Assembly (NCBI GenBank): GCA_964455285.1
Contig: CAYVVG010000012.1
Span: 672-64,671, forward strand
DNA length: 64,000 nucleotides
Direction of reading: 5' to 3'
Origin: an uncultured Prolixibacteraceae bacterium
GTDB taxonomy: Bacteria > Bacteroidota > Bacteroidia > Bacteroidales > FEN-979
In this document: one piece after another, positions 18,586-29,938 of the stretch
Layout: every line of letters begins with the position of its first letter
How positions within the stretch are numbered: the stretch's first letter is position 1
Notes under the pieces: model-generated
Told to the model about the DNA's origin: nothing
Seen by the model: the letters and a program-made list of their open reading frames with translations, nothing else
Database searches by the model: none
Translations under genes and position numbers: made by a program

Positions 18586-18620
18586 GCGATCCCCGGGCCT
18601 CATCCCCGGGGATCGCTTTT
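18586..18620 (+). terminator. Intrinsic terminator hairpin at the convergent M49/dnaE junction
   Basis: 12-bp perfect stem GCGATCCCCGGG/CCCGGGGATCGC followed by TTTT. It overlaps the dnaE stop codon. Confidence 0.7.
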
Positions 18621-21600
18621 TAACGGCATCTTGGCCATTTTATCCACTTCCAGGCTGGGAAACCCGAATTCCTCCACAATTTTACCCCCCACGAGGTAGA
18701 TCCCGTCGCCCCGGAATGGATAAGCAGTCACCGTTTTCGGAAAGTGCACCGTATCGAAGAAACGCCCGTTCACATCGATGAAAGTCCCGAAGTGCATCCA
18801 CTCTTTCCTCACGGTACGCACATACTTGATCGTGACCAGCAAACCCAGCATGCGCACCTTCTTCCCGATGTGATCACTCATCTCATGGGCCAGAATATCG
18901 CCCCGGAACTTCGTTTCGAGAAGTTCAAAATAGGAATGGGTGACCGGGAAACCTAGCAGTTCGATCTCATCGTACACGTCGGCGAGAAGGTTTTGCTCCA
19001 GCACAGGCAGTTCGAACCTTTTGGCGGGGGGGGCGGGGAAAAGTGACGCGTGACGGGTGACGCTCGTCCGCTCGTCCGCTCGTCCGCTCGTCCGCTTGTC
19101 CGCTCGTCCGCTCGTCCGCTTGTCCGCTTGTCCGCTCGTCCGCTCGCCCGCTCGCCCGCTTGTCCGCTCGCCCGCCCCGACCAGCATATGCGCTTCCCAG
19201 AGCAGCACGGCCTTAGGTTTCCCGGTGAAACGGAACGCCCCGACCCTGATTAGAATGATCAGCTGATCCAGCGTAACGGGCACCCTGCTTACGAAATCCT
19301 CCAGGTCCTTATACAATTTTTCCTTCCTTCCATTCCGATCGTCGATCGTACATCGCAGATCGCAGATCGCCCTTCCCACCTCCGCTTCCAGGTTGTTCAC
19401 ATGGATAAACCCCAGGAAGATATCGGTTCCCCGGATGGAGGTCTTGTATTCGCTCCGGTTCACACAGGGTGCATGCAGCCGGCCCCCCGACACCCGGGCC
19501 TCGTTGAAGTACACCCAGGAAGCATAGAAGCCCCCGAAATTATTGATCACACCGGTGATGAACTCCAGGGGGAAATGGGCCTTGAGGTAGAGGCTCTGGT
19601 AGCTTTCGACGGCGTAGGAGGCGGAATGAGCCTTGGAGAAGGAGTATCCGGCGAACGATTCGATCTGCCTCCACACTTCGCGGGTCACCTCTTCGGGGTA
19701 GCCGAACTCGCGGCAGTTCGCGAAGAACTTGTCGATGATGCGCTGCAACTCTTTTTTCGAACGGTATTTACCGCTCATGGCCCGCCGGATCACGTCGGCA
19801 TCGGCCAGGTCGAGGCCGGCAAAGTGGTGGCAGATCTTCAGTACATCCTCCTGGTAAACCATCACCCCGAAGGTCTCCTTCAGTTGTTCCTCCATCACGG
19901 GGTGCAGATAGGTAAAGCGGCCGGGATTGTGGAACCGCAGGATATACTCCTTCATCATGCCCGAACGCGCCACCCCCGGCCGGATGATCGAACTGGCGGC
20001 CACCAGGGTGCGGTAGTTGTCGCACTGCAGCTTTTTCAGCAGGCCGCGCATGGCCGGGCTTTCGACATAAAAGCAGCCGATGGTGCGGGCGCTCCGCAAC
20101 TGTTCTTTAACCTGCTCATCCTCCTTGAACGCCCGCACACGGTGCACGTCGATCGCAATGCCCCGGTTTTTCCTGACCAGCTCGGCTGCTTCATAGATGT
20201 GTCCGATCCCCCGCTGACTGAGGATGTCGAGCTTCTCGAAGCCGATGTCCTCGGCAGTGTACATGTCGAACTGCGTGGTGGGGAATCCCTTGGGGGGCAG
20301 GTCCAGCGCCGTGTAGCAGGTGACGGGCTCTTCGGAGATCAGCACCCCGCCGGCATGGATGCTGCGCAGGTTGGGAAAGTCCGCCATCCTCTCCCCGAGT
20401 TCGCTGATCTTCCGGATGATGTGGTTCTTATGAATGGCCTCATCCGGCGACTTCAGGAAGGAATCGATCTCTCCCTTGGGGAGCCCGTGCACCTTCCCCA
20501 GCTCGCGGTAGATCGACTTGTCGCGGAAGGTCGACATGGCGCCGAGCAGGGCCGTATGCCGCCGCCCGTACCGTTTAAAGATGTAGTCGATCACCTCGTC
20601 GCGCTCTTTCCACGAATAGTCGATGTCGAAATCGGGCGGCGAAGTGCGTTTGGGGTTGATGAAACGCTCGAAGTAAAGGTCGAGCTCGATGGGATCCACA
20701 TCGGTGATCCTCAGGCAGTAGGCCACAATGCTGTTGGCCCCGCTTCCCCGGCCGACATGGTAGAATCCTCTCGACATCGAGTAGCGGATGATGTCCCACG
20801 TGATCAGGAAATAGGCGGCAAAACCCATCCGGTCGATGATATCGAGTTCGTGCCTGACCCGGCTGAGGGCCCCGGCATTCCCGTCGCCATAGCGGTAGAT
20901 CAGTCCGTCCATGGCCAGCTTGCCGAGCAGGACACGGTCGTCGTAAGGGTCACCGGTAAAGGTCTTCCGGTTCTTGCAGCTTTTAAAATCGAAACCGATG
21001 GAGCAGGCCTCCGCCAAACGTTCGGTATTCGACACGATCTCAGGAAATTCACGGGTGGCTCTCCGCCAGTCCTCCGCCGGGTGCATCACCTCGTCGGGCG
21101 AGGCCACCTGGCCGGGGATCAACCGGCTCAGCAACATGTTATGGGCCACCGCCCTGAAATTACGGTGAAGCTCGTAATCCTGCATGGTCCGGAAGGTGAC
21201 CGGCGCCATGATCACCATCCGGGGGATCAGGTCGCGATACCGGGAAAGAACCAGCGGCGTGAGTTCCGAGGGAAGGAGACCGATGAAGGATTGACGATTG
21301 ACGATTGACGATTGACGATTGACGGGTTTCGCCATTTCGCCATTTCGCCATTTCGCCATTTCGCCATTTCGCAACGGGTAGATAAAAAAAACATGCTCCA
21401 ATTCGGGAGCCCGGTCGGGCAGCGGGAGACCGTTCAGGTTGTGGTGGCTCAGAAATTCGTTCAACTCCCGGAAACCCTCGTTGTTTTGCGCCAGCCCGGT
21501 GTAAAGCAGCCTGTCCTCCTGCCTGAATTCAATCCCCGCGATAGGCCTGATGCCCTTCTCCATGCATACCGATACAAACTCCATCATCCCCGTAGAGTTA

Positions 21601-21716
21601 TTGATATCGGTCAGCGCCAGCACCTTCACCCCGCTCTTCACCGCCTCGTCGGCCAGCCCCTCCACCGAAAGGGTGCCGTAACGAAGGGAGTACCAGGAGT
21701 GACAGTTGAGATACAT
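18600..21716 (-). CDS. dnaE: DNA polymerase III alpha subunit, secondary/error-prone (DnaE2-like) type, with repeat-derived insertions
   Basis: PHP domain (CHSWYS, LTDIN), GRGSGANS, catalytic PDFDID, SFSKAHSASY, C-terminal OB region. Linked to dinB and a LexA-like gene. Confidence 0.92.
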   Translation of the reverse strand: MYLNCHSWYSLRYGTLSVEGLADEAVKSGVKVLALTDINNSTGMMEFVSVCMEKGIRPIAGIEFRQEDRLLYTGLAQNNEGFRELNEFLSHHNLNGLPLPDRAPELEHVFFIYPLRNGEMAKWRNGEMAKPVNRQSSIVNRQSFIGLLPSELTPLVLSRYRDLIPRMVIMAPVTFRTMQDYELHRNFRAVAHNMLLSRLIPGQVASPDEVMHPAEDWRRATREFPEIVSNTERLAEACSIGFDFKSCKNRKTFTGDPYDDRVLLGKLAMDGLIYRYGDGNAGALSRVRHELDIIDRMGFAAYFLITWDIIRYSMSRGFYHVGRGSGANSIVAYCLRITDVDPIELDLYFERFINPKRTSPPDFDIDYSWKERDEVIDYIFKRYGRRHTALLGAMSTFRDKSIYRELGKVHGLPKGEIDSFLKSPDEAIHKNHIIRKISELGERMADFPNLRSIHAGGVLISEEPVTCYTALDLPPKGFPTTQFDMYTAEDIGFEKLDILSQRGIGHIYEAAELVRKNRGIAIDVHRVRAFKEDEQVKEQLRSARTIGCFYVESPAMRGLLKKLQCDNYRTLVAASSIIRPGVARSGMMKEYILRFHNPGRFTYLHPVMEEQLKETFGVMVYQEDVLKICHHFAGLDLADADVIRRAMSGKYRSKKELQRIIDKFFANCREFGYPEEVTREVWRQIESFAGYSFSKAHSASYAVESYQSLYLKAHFPLEFITGVINNFGGFYASWVYFNEARVSGGRLHAPCVNRSEYKTSIRGTDIFLGFIHVNNLEAEVGRAICDLRCTIDDRNGRKEKLYKDLEDFVSRVPVTLDQLIILIRVGAFRFTGKPKAVLLWEAHMLVGAGERTSGRAGERTSGQADKRTSGRADKRTSGRADERTSVTRHASLFPAPPAKRFELPVLEQNLLADVYDEIELLGFPVTHSYFELLETKFRGDILAHEMSDHIGKKVRMLGLLVTIKYVRTVRKEWMHFGTFIDVNGRFFDTVHFPKTVTAYPFRGDGIYLVGGKIVEEFGFPSLEVDKMAKMPLKSDPRG
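19043..19173. repeat. In-frame tandem repeat in dnaE: about 3x GTGACG(C/G), then 14x octamer GCT(C/T)G(T/C)CC
   Basis: Counted directly; octamers span 19062-19173. They translate as (ERTSGRAD/ADKRTSGR)n. Confidence 0.95.
19336..19370. repeat. Degenerate 5x heptamer (CGATCGT/AGATCGC) inside dnaE
   Basis: cgatcgt cgatcgt acatcgc agatcgc agatcgc, read directly. Confidence 0.6.
21289..21374. repeat. In-frame compound repeat in dnaE: 5x GATTGAC plus 5x TTTCGCCA (and one variant)
   Basis: Perfect heptamers at 21289-21323 and perfect octamers at 21327-21366. They translate as RNGEMAKWRNGEMAKPVNRQSSIVNRQS. Confidence 0.95.
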
Positions 21717-21788
21717 GGCGAGGTAGCGAAATGGTGAAATAGCGAAATGGCGAAATGGCGAAATGGCGAAATAGCGAGGTAGTGAAAA
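21717..21788. repeat. 9x octamer (A/G)G(C/T)GA(A/G)(A/G)T abutting the dnaE start codon
   Basis: ggcgaggt agcgaaat ggtgaaat agcgaaat ggcgaaat x3 agcgaggt agtgaaaa. Confidence 0.92.
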
Positions 21789-21791
21789 TTA

Positions 21792-21831
21792 TGATTAGTT
21801 TTTAGTCATATTTCGGGTTATAATATAATCA
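21792..21831. promoter_or_regulatory. Tandem putative LexA-like operators upstream of dnaE (TGATTA-N5-TAGTCA; GGGTTA-N5-TAATCA)
   Basis: Same palindrome and same 23-bp offset as the pair upstream of dinB/lexA. Confidence 0.7.
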
Positions 21832-21883
21832 TTTTTCGGATGTAAAATTCCTGCTTATATAATTATATTTGCAGGAAATCGTC

Positions 21884-23380
21884 ATGGCTGGTCTTGTGAA
21901 ACTGTTCGAGCAAAAAACTCCCCGGATCTATTTCCTGGGCGCCGTCGTATTCCTGATGACTGCCTGGTTCTCGACGGGATACAACCACTTCGACGAGCAC
22001 TTCCAGGTGATCGAATTCGCGGGGCTGAAACTCGGTCTCACCGAAGCGGCGAACCTGCCCTGGGAGTACGGCTGCATGATGCGCCCGGCGATCCAGCCGC
22101 TGGCGGTGGTGGTGCTTTACCGGGCAGCCGGACTGGCCGGCATTTCCGACCCGTTTCTGATCGCTTTCATCATCCGGCTTTTCGCAGCCCTGCTTACCTT
22201 CTGGTCGATCCACCTGGTCATCCGGTTGTATTCGCCCGGCCTGCACAATCCCTGTCTTCGCCATGTGCTGCTGCTGCTCTCCTTTTTCCTCTGGTTCATC
22301 CCGTACAATGCCGCCCGTTTCGCCTCCGAGACGATGGCCGGCCGTATCTTCCTGGTCGGCATGGCCCTCCTGTTCCTCCGGCGGGAGCAGCGGGCGGGCG
22401 ACCATCTTCTCAACGGGCTGATCCTGGGACTCGCCTTCGTGTTCCGGTATCAGGCGGGATTCATGATCGCCGGCTATTTTGCCTGGATGGCCCTGGTGCG
22501 GCGAACGGGATTCCGGAATCTCGCTTCCTTTGCAGCCGGGATCCTGCTGTCGGTTGGCGCAGGGATCGTCATCGACCGTTGGTTTTACGGCCGGTGGGTG
22601 TTTACCTCCTGGAACTACTTCGCCCAGAACCTGGTGGAAGGCAAAGCGGCCACCTTTGGAACCAGTCCCTGGTGGTACTATATCGAACAAACCTTGGTCA
22701 ACGCCTTCCCGCCGCTGAGCCTGGTCCTGGTGGCTGCCGTGTTCCTGTACTTCATCCTGTTCCCGAAAGATATCATTACCTGGACCCTGGTGCCCTTCCT
22801 GGCGGTCCATTTTCTGATCCCGCACAAAGAGATCCGTTTCCTGTTCCCGGTTATCGGGTTTCTGCCGGTCATGATCGTCCGCACACTGGATCTCCTGGCC
22901 GAAAGATACCCTTCTGCCCGGCCGGAGCGACGGCCCTTCCGGGTGTCAGCGAAAATATTCTGGTTCCTCAACACGATCATGCTGGTGATCCTTGTCTTCC
23001 GGCCGGCCGACGACGGGATCGCCCTCTTTAAAACCCTGTGGGACCGTTATGACCGGCCGGCCCGGCTCTGTTACACCGGCGACAACCCTTATCACCGGGC
23101 AAAGGTTGACGTTCACTTTTACAAGCGGAAGAGCTTGGTGCTGCAGCAGGTGGATTCGGTGAACCGGATCCGGCCCGTGAGGGACACGGTAACGCTGGTG
23201 GTAACCTCCCGGCCCCTTGTCATGACCGGCACCTCCTCCGGGGCTGAGCTGGTTTATTCCACCTACCCGGCGTGGGTCCGGCGATTCAACATCAACCACT
23301 GGCTCGACCGCACCAGTTTCTGGCATGTTTACGAGATAAAACCCGTTACTCCTTCACCCGGCAGTCATGAAACGGAATGA
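21884..23380 (+). CDS. GT-C fold glycosyltransferase, Alg9/PIG-B (GT22)-like mannosyltransferase
   Basis: HFDEHFQVIE, LPWEYG, IPHKEIRFLFP motifs, more than 10 TM helices. ATG 21884 follows TATATTTG (21864-21871). Confidence 0.8.
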   Translation: MAGLVKLFEQKTPRIYFLGAVVFLMTAWFSTGYNHFDEHFQVIEFAGLKLGLTEAANLPWEYGCMMRPAIQPLAVVVLYRAAGLAGISDPFLIAFIIRLFAALLTFWSIHLVIRLYSPGLHNPCLRHVLLLLSFFLWFIPYNAARFASETMAGRIFLVGMALLFLRREQRAGDHLLNGLILGLAFVFRYQAGFMIAGYFAWMALVRRTGFRNLASFAAGILLSVGAGIVIDRWFYGRWVFTSWNYFAQNLVEGKAATFGTSPWWYYIEQTLVNAFPPLSLVLVAAVFLYFILFPKDIITWTLVPFLAVHFLIPHKEIRFLFPVIGFLPVMIVRTLDLLAERYPSARPERRPFRVSAKIFWFLNTIMLVILVFRPADDGIALFKTLWDRYDRPARLCYTGDNPYHRAKVDVHFYKRKSLVLQQVDSVNRIRPVRDTVTLVVTSRPLVMTGTSSGAELVYSTYPAWVRRFNINHWLDRTSFWHVYEIKPVTPSPGSHETE

Positions 23381-24551
23381 GTACTTCAACGGTTTCACCC
23401 TGTTCGTTGCGCTGGCATGCCTGCTCAACCTGGTGATGAACCTGATCAACCACCGCTTTCACCCGGGCGATTTCCAGGTATATTACAGCGCGGCGGAACA
23501 GCTTGTGTCGGGAGATCCTGTATATATGGTATCCTTTTACACCGGCAGCGGGTATTACAAATACAGTCCCGTCATCCTCCTGTTCTTTCTGCCTTATCTT
23601 CCCTTCCCGCTGTTCACTGCCTCCGTTCTCCATTTCCTGGTGCAGAGTGTTGCCTTCTATCTGACTTTCCGGGTGATCCGCCGGATCCTTCAGGACTTTT
23701 TCTCCTATCCCGCAGGGGGTCGGGGGAACCTGCTGCTGACACTTTCCTTCGCGGGCATCCTGATACACCTCACGCGGGAACTGTACGTGGGCAACATCAA
23801 CATCCTGCTGCTGCTTCTCACGTTGCTTTCACTGCAGATGTTCCTTGAGGGGAGAGAGAGGCCTGGCGGCATCCTTGCCGGCATTGCCCTCCTGGCCAAA
23901 CCCTACCTGGCGATCCTGCTGCTGCCTATGGTGATGCGGGGAAGGTGGAAAGCGACCGGATGGGCGGCTGCGACCGTCCTGGCCGGGTTGCTTCTGCCCT
24001 TCCTCTACCCGGGCCCTGTGAGGGCGGCCGAACTGTACTCGGGCTGGTACCGAACACTCACCATGCACGCAGGAGGATTCCCCGGCATGACCTCGGTCGA
24101 CTACCTGGCCGCGCGGTACATCGCCGGATGGCCCTCCTATGGCAATCTGCTGATATTCTTGCTGCTCATGGCGTTGGCCGTGGTTTTCATCCGCGGCAAC
24201 ATCCGGATTGAAAGAACGGACGTCAACCCGGACCGGGCCAACGCAAATGCCGCCTTCGAATGGTTTCTGCTGGCTGCACTGATCCCCAACCTGATCAAAA
24301 CCGACTGGGTATTGCTGTTGTTCAGCGCCCCGCTGATCGCCTTCATGGTGTTCACGGTCGCCGCCCGGAAAAGCTACGGCTGGATCCCGGTGCTGGTGGT
24401 CCTCCTCTTCTTTTATGGCGCCAATTCCGACGACCTTCTCGGGCGGGAGCTTTCGCGGAAGATCCTCCATTCGGGGCTGATGGGACTCGCCAATTTCCTC
24501 CTGGTGATCGTGGCGGCGGTCATGTACCGGACCGTCAGAATAAGATCGTAG
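23367..24551 (+). CDS. GT87/DUF2029 family membrane glycosyltransferase
   Basis: GDFQVYYSAA...L..G..VY, YKYSPV, GNINILL, ALLAKPY motifs; polytopic. Overlaps the upstream gene. Confidence 0.8.
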   Translation: MKRNEYFNGFTLFVALACLLNLVMNLINHRFHPGDFQVYYSAAEQLVSGDPVYMVSFYTGSGYYKYSPVILLFFLPYLPFPLFTASVLHFLVQSVAFYLTFRVIRRILQDFFSYPAGGRGNLLLTLSFAGILIHLTRELYVGNINILLLLLTLLSLQMFLEGRERPGGILAGIALLAKPYLAILLLPMVMRGRWKATGWAAATVLAGLLLPFLYPGPVRAAELYSGWYRTLTMHAGGFPGMTSVDYLAARYIAGWPSYGNLLIFLLLMALAVVFIRGNIRIERTDVNPDRANANAAFEWFLLAALIPNLIKTDWVLLLFSAPLIAFMVFTVAARKSYGWIPVLVVLLFFYGANSDDLLGRELSRKILHSGLMGLANFLLVIVAAVMYRTVRIRS

Positions 24552-24557
24552 TTGCCG

Positions 24558-24579
24558 CCCGTCACCCGTCACCCCTTCA
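24558..24579. repeat. Short GTGACGG-family repeat at the dinB stop codon
   Basis: cccgtca cccgtca ccccttca. The TGA of dinB lies inside the repeat. Confidence 0.6.
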
Positions 24580-25720
24580 CCCCCACCCCTCTCATCACCA
24601 CCTTCTGCCCGTACTTTCGCCGGATCCGGTCGAGGGCCTGGTAGAGGTTCACCATTCCGGCATTGTCGTCGAACAGGTTGAGTTGCGGGTTGCCGGAGAT
24701 GAGGTTGCTGAAGCGCACCCCGATGAGCCGGATCAGCATGCGCCGCTGGTAGAGCCGGTCGAAGAGGCTTTTCACCAGGGGGATGAGCTCATGGTCGAAG
24801 GCGGTATAGGGAACGCGCTGCTGCAGGGTGTGGGTGTCGAAGTTTGAGTAGCGGATCTTGACCGTGACGCAGGAGGTAAGTTTCTGTTTGTCGCGCAGTT
24901 CGAAAGATATCTTCTCAACCATCTTCACCAGGATCTCCTTCATCCGGACGATGTCGATGCTGTCCTGCTCGAAGGTATTTTCGGTACTGACCGATTTGGC
25001 TTCGTGCCAGGGGTAGACGGGGGTGGGGTCGATGCCGTTGGCCTTTTCCCAGATCACGATGCCGTTTTTCCCCATCACCCGTTCCATCATGTCGGGCGGG
25101 ATGCGGCGGAGGGTGTCGATGGTCACCACCCCCATCGAGCGCAGGAGCCGGTAGGTCTTCTCCCCGATCATGGGTATCTTGCGGATCGACAGGGGGGCCA
25201 GGAAGGGATCCACCGCCCCGCGCTCCACGTACAGTTCACCGTTGGGCTTGGCTTCGCCCGTGGCGATCTTCGACACCGTTTTATTCACGGAGAGTCCGAA
25301 AGAGATGGGCAACCCGGTGTTGCGGATGATCGCCTCCCGCAGTTCATGGGTCCATTGCCGGATCCCGAAGAAGCGGTCCATGCCGGTGATGTCGATATAG
25401 TGCTCGTCGATGGAGGCTTTCTCATAGAGAGGCGCCTTTTCGGCGATGATCTCCGTAACGGTGTCGGAGTATTTCGAGTAGAGCTCCATGTCGCCCCGCA
25501 CCAGGATGGCGTCGCCGCAGAGGGCGCGTGCCATCTTCACCGGCATGGCCGAGTGGACGCCGAACTTCCGCGCCTCGTAGCTGCAGCTGGCCACCACTCC
25601 CCGGTCGGAGGTGCCGCCGATGATCACCGGCTTGCCGACCAGTTCGGGGCGGAGCAGGCGTTCGACCGAAACGAAGAAGGTGTCGAGGTCGAGGTGAACG
25701 ATATTTCGGGAGGAGGACAC
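24569..25720 (-). CDS. dinB: DNA polymerase IV (Y family)
   Basis: HLDLDTFFVSVE, SCSYEARKFGV, SIDEHYID, SVNKTVSKIA, KIRYSNF. GTG start. Confidence 0.95.
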   Translation of the reverse strand: MSSSRNIVHLDLDTFFVSVERLLRPELVGKPVIIGGTSDRGVVASCSYEARKFGVHSAMPVKMARALCGDAILVRGDMELYSKYSDTVTEIIAEKAPLYEKASIDEHYIDITGMDRFFGIRQWTHELREAIIRNTGLPISFGLSVNKTVSKIATGEAKPNGELYVERGAVDPFLAPLSIRKIPMIGEKTYRLLRSMGVVTIDTLRRIPPDMMERVMGKNGIVIWEKANGIDPTPVYPWHEAKSVSTENTFEQDSIDIVRMKEILVKMVEKISFELRDKQKLTSCVTVKIRYSNFDTHTLQQRVPYTAFDHELIPLVKSLFDRLYQRRMLIRLIGVRFSNLISGNPQLNLFDDNAGMVNLYQALDRIRRKYGQKVVMRGVGVKG

Positions 25721-25752
25721 AAATAGTGAAATAGCGAAATAGTGAAATGGTG
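25721..25752. repeat. 4x octamer AAAT(A/G)G(T/C)G abutting the dinB start codon
   Basis: aaatagtg aaatagcg aaatagtg aaatggtg. Same family and same position as the tract before dnaE. Confidence 0.85.
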
Positions 25753-25756
25753 AATT

Positions 25757-25796
25757 TGATTATTTTTTAATCATTTTGCCGATTACAATATAATCA
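25757..25796. promoter_or_regulatory. Tandem putative LexA-like operators between divergent dinB and lexA-like genes (TGATTA-N5-TAATCA; CGATTA-N5-TAATCA)
   Basis: Perfect palindrome at 25757-25773 and a 1-mismatch copy at 25780-25796, directly upstream of TATATTTG (25798-25805). Confidence 0.8.
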
Positions 25797-25829: not shown

Positions 25830-26633
25830 ATGTTTTTCAGCAGCAACATCAAATTTCTGCGGAAGCGCCGGGGGCGCACGCAGGACGACGTGGCCGCGGC
25901 CCTCGGGATGAAGCGGTCCACGCTGAGCGGGTATGAGAACAACATCGCCCAGCCTGGGTTCGGGGCGCTGGTCGCCTTCTCGAACTATTTCAACACCGCC
26001 ATCGACACCCTGATCCGGGTCGACCTGGCTTCCATCGCCGAGAGCCAGGTGCGCCAGCTGGAGAGGGGTTATGACGTATTTCTCAGGGGGTCGAACCTGC
26101 GCATCCTGACCACCACCGTTGGCCCCGACAACGAAGACAACATCGAGCTGGTTTCGGAGAAGGCCAAGGCCGGGTACACCAGCGGGTTTGCCGACCCGGA
26201 ATACATCAGCATCCTGCCCACCTTCCGCCTGCCCTTCCTATCGAAACAGAAAAAGTACCGCACCTTCCAGGTCAGCGGCGACTCCATGCTGCCCATCCCC
26301 CACGGCGCCTGGGTCACCGGGGTCTTTGTTCAGGACTGGAACACGATCCGCAACCGCGACGCCTACATCATCCTGACCATGGATGAGGGAGTCGTATTTA
26401 AAGTGGTGGAGAACCGGATCACGGCGGAGGGGAAACTGGTGCTCCACTCGCTGAACCCGGTGTATGAGCCGTATGACATCCGCACAACCGACATCCGCGA
26501 GATCTGGCAGTTCGTTCACTTTATAAGCCCGAAGCTGCCCGAGAACCCCGGCTCGGAAAATTACCACCTGGTGGAAACGGTCCGGCAGTTGCGCGACGAC
26601 ATCCGCGTGATCCAGACAAAACTGAACATCTGA
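25830..26633 (+). CDS. LexA-like repressor: XRE-type HTH plus S24 autopeptidase
   Basis: NIKFLRKRRGRTQDDVA HTH, Ala-Gly site KAKAGY, Ser nucleophile GDSMLP, Lys in VVFKVV. Divergent from dinB. Confidence 0.88.
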   Translation: MFFSSNIKFLRKRRGRTQDDVAAALGMKRSTLSGYENNIAQPGFGALVAFSNYFNTAIDTLIRVDLASIAESQVRQLERGYDVFLRGSNLRILTTTVGPDNEDNIELVSEKAKAGYTSGFADPEYISILPTFRLPFLSKQKKYRTFQVSGDSMLPIPHGAWVTGVFVQDWNTIRNRDAYIILTMDEGVVFKVVENRITAEGKLVLHSLNPVYEPYDIRTTDIREIWQFVHFISPKLPENPGSENYHLVETVRQLRDDIRVIQTKLNI

Positions 26634-28991: not shown

Positions 28992-29875
28992 CCGAAACGA
29001 ATAGTCGCCGGGTAATCCTCGTAGCGGGTGCCGACGGACAGCTCGGGAACGAACTGAGGGTGCTCGCACCGATGCATCCGGGAATGGAGTTTCATTTCAC
29101 GGATGTCGGAGAACTGGATATCACCAGCGAGACGGCCGTCATGGCCATGACCGGTCGGCTCCGGCCATCGGTGATCATTAACTGCGCTGCCTATACTGCC
29201 GTCGACAAAGCCGAACAGGACGAGGAGAGAGCCACCCTGCTCAATGGCACTGCCCCCGGCATCCTGGCACGCGCGGCCGGTATGACAGGGGCGCTGCTGA
29301 TCCATGTCTCGACCGACTACGTGTTCGACGGCCGGGCCTGCACTCCCTATGCGGAAGATCACCCGGTTGCCCCGGCATCGGCTTACGGGCGCAGCAAGCT
29401 GATCGGCGAACAGCAGGTCAGGGTCCACGCCAGCCAGGCCATCATCCTTCGCACCTCCTGGCTCTATTCGTCGTTCGGACACAATTTCGTCAGGACGATG
29501 ATGAAGTATGGCAGAGAAAGGGGAAGTTTGCGGGTGGTGTTCGACCAGGCGGGCTCCCCGACCTATGCCCGCGACCTTGCTTCCGCCATCCTGCAAATCG
29601 TCGAATCCGGCCGGCCCGTCGAGGGTACGGAGGTTTTCCATTATGCCAATGAAGGCGTGGCAAGCTGGTATGATTTTGCCCTTGCCATCCTGGAGACAGG
29701 TGAGATCCCATGCATCGTGACCCCCATCCTCACCCGAGATTATCCCCTTCCCGCCGCAAGGCCGGCGTACAGCGTATTCGACAAAGCAAAGATCAAGGAG
29801 CGTTTCGGGATCCAAATACCCTACTGGAGAGATAGTTTGAAGGATTGTATGCGGGTGATAGGGGAAGAGCGATGA
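28988..29875 (+). CDS. rfbD: dTDP-4-dehydrorhamnose reductase
   Basis: [39 protein letters not shown]. Confidence 0.93.
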
Positions 29876-29938
29876 GATTGAAGATTGAAGATTGAAGATT
29901 GAAGATTGAAGATTGAAGATTGAAGATTGAAGAATTGA
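29875..29938. repeat. 8x perfect heptamer AGATTGA (plus one variant) between rfbD and pgm
   Basis: Counted directly at 29875-29930; begins at the last base of the rfbD stop codon. Confidence 0.95.

Follow-up and report, generated by a model that had tools for sequence, protein, structure and literature searches.

Several lineages of bacteria carry dispersed short tandem repeats, described as long simple sequence repeats (LSSRs), as the short tandemly repeated repetitive (STRR) heptamers of cyanobacteria, and as the TAACTGA repeats of Beggiatoaceae, Cyanobacteria and Bacteroidetes; in all these, units of 5-11 nt, mostly 7 nt, are arranged in tandem at many loci with a patchy, lineage-specific spread, lie mostly between genes, often ending a few nucleotides from a start codon, and differ between relatives by indels of whole units (PMC4679880, also summarising Mrazek et al. 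2007). Here we describe two tracts of octamers at the start of the gene for a DnaE2/ImuC-like error-prone DNA polymerase (hereinafter dnaE2) in an uncultured Prolixibacteraceae bacterium, within a 64,000-nt stretch of GenBank assembly GCA_964455285.1 (contig CAYVVG010000012.1, positions 672 to 64,671; the window), the coordinates of which are used throughout unless another contig is named. The evidence places these tracts among the long-unexplained dispersed tandem repeats of 7-8 nt in bacteria: each consists of a head-to-tail 8-nt unit, in 7.9 and 5.8 copies, respectively, according to Tandem Repeats Finder (TRF). In the interpretation that we consider rather probable, both tracts are dispersed, genus-specific octamer microsatellites that occupy two permissive sites, and the complementarity between them is incidental. 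In contrast to the LSSR and STRR families, 8-mers are as common here as 7-mers, there are dozens of unit families, the ATTTCRCY family to which the tracts belong shows no orientation bias, and arrays are found also within a conserved enzyme, in a domain that looks essential, where one of them forms, with the array in front of the gene, a 49-nt inverted pair around the start codon.

Inhibition of translation by long-range fold-back pairing within an mRNA is familiar from the read-through transcripts of the IS10 transposase and from the coat/replicase interaction of MS2, and the fold-back duplex of IS10 is a target of RNase III. In these systems, as at dnaE2, a sequence tens to hundreds of nucleotides away pairs with the initiation region; the IS10 and MS2 pairings, however, are unique, conserved and experimentally shown, whereas the arms at dnaE2 are dispersed repeats, the pairing of which is not conserved and is predicted from sequence.

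The leader array (21717..21780, minus strand) comprises eight octamers of the ATTTCRCY/ACCTCGCY family (81% matches by TRF) and occupies the interval between a LexA-like box (box 2, see below) and the start codon. On the mRNA strand (21780-21717), it reads ACCTCGCT, three copies of ATTTCGCC, ATTTCGCT, ATTTCACC, ATTTCGCT and ACCTCGCC, and is directly abutted by the ATG (21714..21716, minus strand) that begins the N-terminus MYLNCHS, which aligns with all orthologues; for annotation, it is relevant that the open frame extends upstream through the array. The in-gene octamer array (21327..21372, minus strand) consists of 5.75 copies of the octamer CGAAATGG, which is the leader unit in reverse complement, with 100% matches by TRF, and encodes RNGEMAKWRNGEMAK; together with a junction and the adjacent, perfect heptamer array (AATCGTC, 5.1 copies, 21289..21324, minus strand), which encodes VNRQSSIVNRQS, it makes up an 84-nt in-frame insert. 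The in-gene copies are thus uniform whereas the leader copies are heterogeneous. A first-pass annotation of this locus had described the leader and in-gene repeats as reverse complements that enclose the start codon, and so they are: the arms (21327-21375 and 21723-21771) are 49 nt long, 94% complementary, including 30 nt of perfect identity, lie 347 nt apart, and can be aligned in several registers offset by 8 nt.

Folding of the corresponding RNA (21800-21280, 521 nt), which the same annotation had envisaged, yields a predicted leader/in-gene helix of 36+9 bp and, for the whole RNA, a minimum free energy of -205.3 kcal/mol, compared to -169.4 +/- 5.5 kcal/mol for dinucleotide shuffles (z -6.55), and the two arrays folded alone give -82 kcal/mol. 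The longest uninterrupted pairing between leader and gene, with G-U pairs counted, is 42 nt, close to the 40 bp or so that had been estimated. The helix terminates approximately 8 nt upstream of the AUG, so that the complementarity reaches the initiation region, and the mean unpaired probability computed for positions -25 to +12 is 0.30 with the in-gene array, compared to 0.51 without it and 0.51 in the control with the array reversed. These predictions favor the possibility that a duplex between the 5' untranslated region (5'UTR) and the gene occludes initiation and/or forms a substrate for RNase III, and so silences basal or poorly translated dnaE2 mRNA; if functional, such pairing would represent a new restraint on a mutagenic polymerase of the SOS response. 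Also in accord with this possibility, the leader probably lies within the transcript, the genome encodes an RNase III homologue, and at other loci of the genome, small genes are flanked by inverted arrays, much like the intervening sequences that RNase III processes. Nevertheless, we regard such a function as decidedly unlikely. The contrast between the heterogeneous leader and the uniform in-gene copies gives no hint that the two are maintained together, ribosomes can already load when the partner strand is still about 345 nt from being transcribed, and ATTTCRCY arrays upstream of genes face either way. Moreover, the pairing is well beyond chance for random sequence but not far beyond expectation in this genome, in which nearby arrays often share the unit, in either orientation.

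A further argument against a regulatory duplex comes from the comparison of about 25 orthologues drawn from genomes of the genus, GTDB genomes and metagenomes (labeled from L001, the present locus, onward), with the longest uninterrupted pairing used as the measure. A leader array in the sense orientation is present in L001, L003, L004, L005, L010, L014, L015, L021/L112, L023 and L102, is absent in L002, L006-L009, L011 and L022, and is replaced by antisense units in L012, L024 and L026, where dnaE2 directly follows dinB; it comprises anywhere from 0 to about 9 units. In the loop of the protein into which the in-gene array falls, octamers are exclusively antisense in L001, L009 and L103, and L014/L023, L102, L021/L112 and L024 have them in both orientations, as a local hairpin; they are sense only in L007 and are absent in most of the remaining orthologues, including L003, L004, L005, L010 and L015, all of which have a leader array; the same site holds an AATCGTC heptamer array in L002, L006, L008, L010 and L011. 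Both sites are thus hypervariable hot spots for arrays, most orthologues have one partner of the pair or neither, and where loops contain an adjacent inverted partner of their own, that partner would compete with the leader. Accordingly, the longest uninterrupted pairing between leader and coding sequence, 42 nt in L001, is 20 nt in L014, 18 in L102, 13 in L023 and 10 in L112 (where a helix with interruptions, at -43 kcal/mol, is also predicted), and is at background (14 nt or less) elsewhere. This partial complementarity in L014/L023, L102 and L112 speaks for a functional duplex; the long clean duplex, however, exists only in the present genome, and neither conservation nor covariation of the pairing was found across the approximately 25 orthologues. 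In the tree of DnaE2 proteins, L001, L009 and the clade of L014, L023 and L024 are separate lineages. Because either arm is kept without the other and the orientation in the loop is mixed, the pattern is unlike that of a selected pairing. The proposal of the first-pass annotation that the pairing adds a regulatory layer to SOS control is therefore not supported: the arms often lack a partner, the loop orientation varies, and the octamer is genus-wide rather than SOS-specific. Further copies of the locus from the same species were sought as well: JGI metagenomes scanned for an exact 36-mer yielded none, and a second metagenome scan yielded three orthologues, none of the same species; in exact look-ups, the DnaE2 protein was not on record, and the neighboring GT22 protein led to a single Logan contig that ends inside the leader array.

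The affiliation of both tracts with a dispersed population is apparent from the survey of the assembly (G000; 3.75 Mb in 124 contigs, 55.6% GC), the nearest database records being Bacteroidales metagenome-assembled genomes. With three copies as the minimum, there are 90 perfect arrays at period 7 and 94 at period 8, compared to four at period 5 and 12 at period 6, and TRF detects 213 arrays of period 7 and 201 of period 8, about 414 altogether. By crude greedy open reading frame calls, which make the proportions approximate, the arrays are located mainly at gene boundaries, where random positions score about 10%, and only about 48 genome-wide are truly internal to a gene. The ATTTCRCY arrays account for about 45 loci, adjoining unrelated genes, and upstream of start codons they show no orientation bias (six sense, five antisense). 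A three-unit ATTTCRCY pattern is present in 15 of the 19 genomes of the genus, with up to 176 matches, but in none of 12 other genera of the order, and the reversed control gave no matches. Among pairs of arrays separated by 2 kb or less, 42 of 222 share the unit, in equal parts direct and inverted (21 each), approximately three times the background of 6.4% for all pairs.

The host of the in-gene array is an intact gene (18600..21716, minus strand) that encodes a protein of 1038 aa with the Pfam domains PHP, DNA_pol3_alpha, finger and HHH_6, distinct from a longer, 1192-aa DnaE paralogue on contig C47. AlphaFold2 was applied to residues 1-300 with an alignment of 32 sequences; in the resulting model, which has a mean predicted local distance difference test (pLDDT) score of 85, the repeat-encoded residues 115-143 have a pLDDT of about 50 and lie between the strands 109-114 and 143-147. 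Outside the genus, the segment between the conserved motifs IYPF and IGIRPS consists of 12 repeat-free residues, whereas within the genus it spans 12-102 residues of 7- and 8-mer arrays. The in-gene array is therefore, according to the model, an insert in a disordered surface loop of the PHP domain, with translation indicated by the intact frame together with the model, and this loop and the 5'UTR are sites that tolerate changes in length. Further in-frame arrays occur in the same gene, namely, three copies of GTGACGC and 14.4 copies of CGCTCGTC within 19043-19175 (the latter array at 19061-19175), and 3.9 copies of GATCGCA at 19344-19370; the GTGACGC and CGCTCGTC arrays belong to a C-terminal linker that varies in length in all orthologues of the genus, and the alignment segments of these orthologues break near residues 790-890.

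If the complementarity is incidental, as we propose, both tracts would be copies of the ATTTCRCY family (with its ACCTCGCY variant), specific to an uncultured genus of Bacteroidales, the arrays of which presumably grow, shrink and homogenise via replication slippage and persist only where they are tolerated. Two tolerant spots in dnaE2, one in the 5'UTR between the pair of LexA-like operators and the ATG and the other in the PHP-domain loop between two beta-strands, would have borne arrays since before the genus diversified. The loop array of the present genome would then be a freshly homogenised antisense run, hence its complementarity to the leader. The leader is likely to be transcribed, and the loop array is translated as an insert, as the intact frame and the model show. 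Computation indicates that naked RNA allows the two tracts to pair, but this pairing would be a by-product of repeat family and orientation. In vivo, it probably would be forestalled in most cases by coupled translation, given that synthesis of the partner strand comes approximately 345 nt after the start codon.

Several observations, however, weigh against this interpretation. Four lineages (L001, L014/L023, L102 and L021/L112) pair a sense leader with antisense octamers in the loop, which could reflect an ancestral pairing that has been retained. The dnaE2 pair is the longest pair of ATTTCRCY arrays in opposite orientation in the genome, and at least three opposite pairs were seen within 600 nt compared to the approximately 0.16 expected under random placement of about 45 arrays, so the placement of these arrays is not random. 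Finally, dnaE2 holds four of the 48 internal arrays of the genome, compared to an expectation of about 0.04 (by the crude gene calls), an unexplained excess that hints at more than tolerance; the gene shares this top count with the gene for a 1991-aa surface protein on contig C11, in which the arrays may partly reflect the repeated domains of that protein.

The excess of internal arrays could also indicate an adaptive contingency locus, in which slippage in the 8-mer, the 7-mer and the 14-copy 8-mer arrays of the coding sequence, and in the leader array, would switch or tune the polymerase, with the complementarity irrelevant or merely destabilising. There is a precedent in mutL, where 6-bp repeats switch mutability (PMC2955026). 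Both cases involve tandem repeats inside a gene that affects the mutation rate, and in dnaE2, where non-triplet tracts are present in the gene as well as in the leader, the perfect 7- and 8-nt units are not multiples of three, so that a change by one unit shifts the frame. Moreover, the arrays stay at the same sites across the genus and yet are homogeneous. As in the LSSR families, copy number changes by whole units at the same site between relatives, given the range from 0 to about 9 leader units. In particular, L014 and L023, which are 2.26% diverged, are one leader indel apart, and L004 and L010, 16.5% diverged, differ by one 8-nt leader unit and several loop indels, the total of the latter being a multiple of three. 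By contrast with mutL and other contingency loci, no OFF allele or tract-length polymorphism was seen among the assemblies, and the copy numbers are low, at 5-6 per tract. Every orthologue among the approximately 25 assemblies is in frame, and L021 and L112, which come from separate sources and differ at one position in 1900 nt, have identical arrays. These two facts imply that the turnover of the arrays, assessed from consensus assemblies, looks like a species-level process rather than hypermutability, and a contingency locus accordingly appears to us possible but unlikely.

An interaction at the level of DNA is another conceivable source of the inverted arrangement. The 49-bp arms might recombine or template-switch, inverting the 347-bp segment that includes the start codon and codons 1-115 and thus turning the gene ON or OFF, or else the in-gene array might be an inverted copy of the leader. 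The length and near-identity of the arms would suit such events, the local clustering of same-unit arrays in both orientations points to local copying, and segments that invert between flanking inverted repeats are a known feature of Bacteroidales. However, the flipped arrangement was found in no orthologue assembly, and there is no recombinase among the neighboring genes that were checked (GT22, GT87, dinB-like and XRE-S24). In addition, L009 and L103 have antisense octamers in the loop without a matching leader array, which implies that a loop array need not derive from copying of the leader. On balance, we consider a DNA-level origin or function very improbable.

Upstream of the leader array lie two LexA-like boxes, box 2 (TGACTAAAAACTAATCA on the minus strand, 21792..21808) and box 1 (TGATTATATTATAACCC on the minus strand, 21815..21831), both identified by motif scan and comparison of orthologues, in which box 2 is conserved; box 1 probably overlaps the dnaE2 promoter. 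In the genome-wide scan, double TGATTA-N5-TAATCA boxes, 23 nt apart from start to start, occur in two places only, upstream of dnaE2 (21792-21831) and upstream of a dinB-like gene with a GTG start (24569-25720; boxes at 25757-25796). Facing the dinB-like gene is a divergent gene (25830-26633, plus strand) for a 267-aa protein that combines an XRE-type helix-turn-helix (HTH) domain with peptidase S24 (HTH_3 + Peptidase_S24). The SOS context that the first-pass annotation had assumed thus gains substance from the neighborhood. The non-canonical LexA of Bacteroidetes has the same XRE-HTH and S24 composition and dyad-N5-dyad operators (PMC8565304), and the regulon described there shares with the present locus the two palindromes before error-prone polymerase genes and the divergent repressor gene; the dyad is CTAA/TTAG, GGA/TCC or TTAC/GTAA in that regulon but TGATTA/TAATCA here, where the operator is predicted. 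The XRE-S24 protein is accordingly a candidate non-canonical LexA, and TGATTA/TAATCA seems to represent a new variant of the operator dyad, with a tiny predicted regulon. Given that the boxes and the repressor match those of Bacteroidetes (PMC8565304), SOS control of dnaE2 is a reasonable inference.

In orthologues without octamers, the start codon follows box 2 by only 0-20 nt, so the promoter must coincide with the boxes or precede them, which makes the leader array, where present, most likely a transcribed 5'UTR. The transcription start upstream of the leader tract, on which the annotation's proposal depended, is therefore most likely correct. The -7-like box that was offered in its support fares less well: TAATTTTC is present on the minus strand (21784..21791, one base off the proposed range), with one mismatch to TAnnTTTG, and is the sole near-match to this pattern on that strand there, but it is not conserved across the orthologues; transcription from it, if it is used, would still begin at the 5' edge of the array.

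The dinB-like gene has a paralogous leader array (25721..25754, minus strand) of ATTTCACT/ATTTCGCT octamers between its double box and the GTG, so that the two leaders are alike in the succession of box 1, box 2, octamers and start codon. In the relatives L012, L017, L019 and L024-L026, dnaE2 directly follows a dinB/imuB-like gene; here (21717-25720), glycosyltransferase genes of the GT22 and GT87 families on the opposite strand separate the two, and the leader consisting of two boxes and octamers is duplicated. The presence of octamers after both double boxes suggested ATTTCRCY as an SOS-specific motif, which we rejected in view of the approximately 45 loci by unrelated genes and the genus-wide distribution.

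A combination of the alternatives discussed above can be imagined, in which the non-triplet arrays long kept at three sites in dnaE2, together with the leaders of dnaE2 and dinB, provide stochastic ON/OFF or dosage switching of a repeat-controlled mutator, supplemented in the present genome by self-silencing, either through a fold-back of untranslated mRNA that RNase III could cleave or through a flip of the start segment. SOS mutagenesis would then have to pass a second gate, either heritable or post-transcriptional, but we deem this combination quite doubtful. If, instead, the complementarity is incidental, the locus offers a clean case of repeats colonising a conserved enzyme, where they would be confined to the 5'UTR and disordered loops, never break the frame and persist throughout a genus, as well as a caution against inferring regulation from complementarity that derives from repeats. 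In addition, dnaE2 lends itself to measurements of how unstable 7-8-nt repeats are.

Inverted arrays of a different kind bracket genes for PF05635 four-helix-bundle or PF13366 GxxExxY proteins elsewhere in the genome (C70:86-564, C9:35802-36413, C65:9707-10303, C94:6961-7470, C20:52642-53248 and C93:1674-2263), each cassette with a single 7-, 8- or 10-nt unit that differs from one cassette to another. In these cassettes, which resemble 23S rRNA intervening sequences that bear open reading frames, the arrays are inverted, and their spacing of 340-490 nt (C70, C9, C65, C94 and C20) is similar to the 347 nt at dnaE2; however, what the cassettes enclose is a small accessory gene, whereas at dnaE2 the enclosed segment is part of the host gene itself, namely, its conserved first 115 codons. 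The dnaE2 pair was considered as a cassette of this type and rejected because the enclosed 347 nt are the conserved N-terminus of dnaE2; ATTTCRCY units flank none of the PF05635 genes of the genome.

Two pairs of ATTTCRCY arrays, both intergenic (C16:13358-13430 and C33:27792-27862), have the form of a hairpin, with an antisense array, a gap of 6-19 nt and a sense array. A hairpin of two inverted arrays as the elementary form of the family was rejected, given that only these two pairs are so arranged and most arrays are solo. Upstream of start codons, the heptamers AAATCGT, ACATCGT and AATCGTC are sense in 22 cases and antisense in none, a bias that the octamer families lack, and this one-way orientation hints at a strand-specific, RNA-level role for this group. 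Among the longest tracts of the window are nine near-perfect AGATTGA heptamers (29875-29938). Finally, the peptide pattern RNGEMAKW, the translation of GAAATGGC-type octamers, matches many unrelated metagenome contigs (L126-L139, for example, Ga0126343), which indicates that similar octamer arrays occur beyond the genus.

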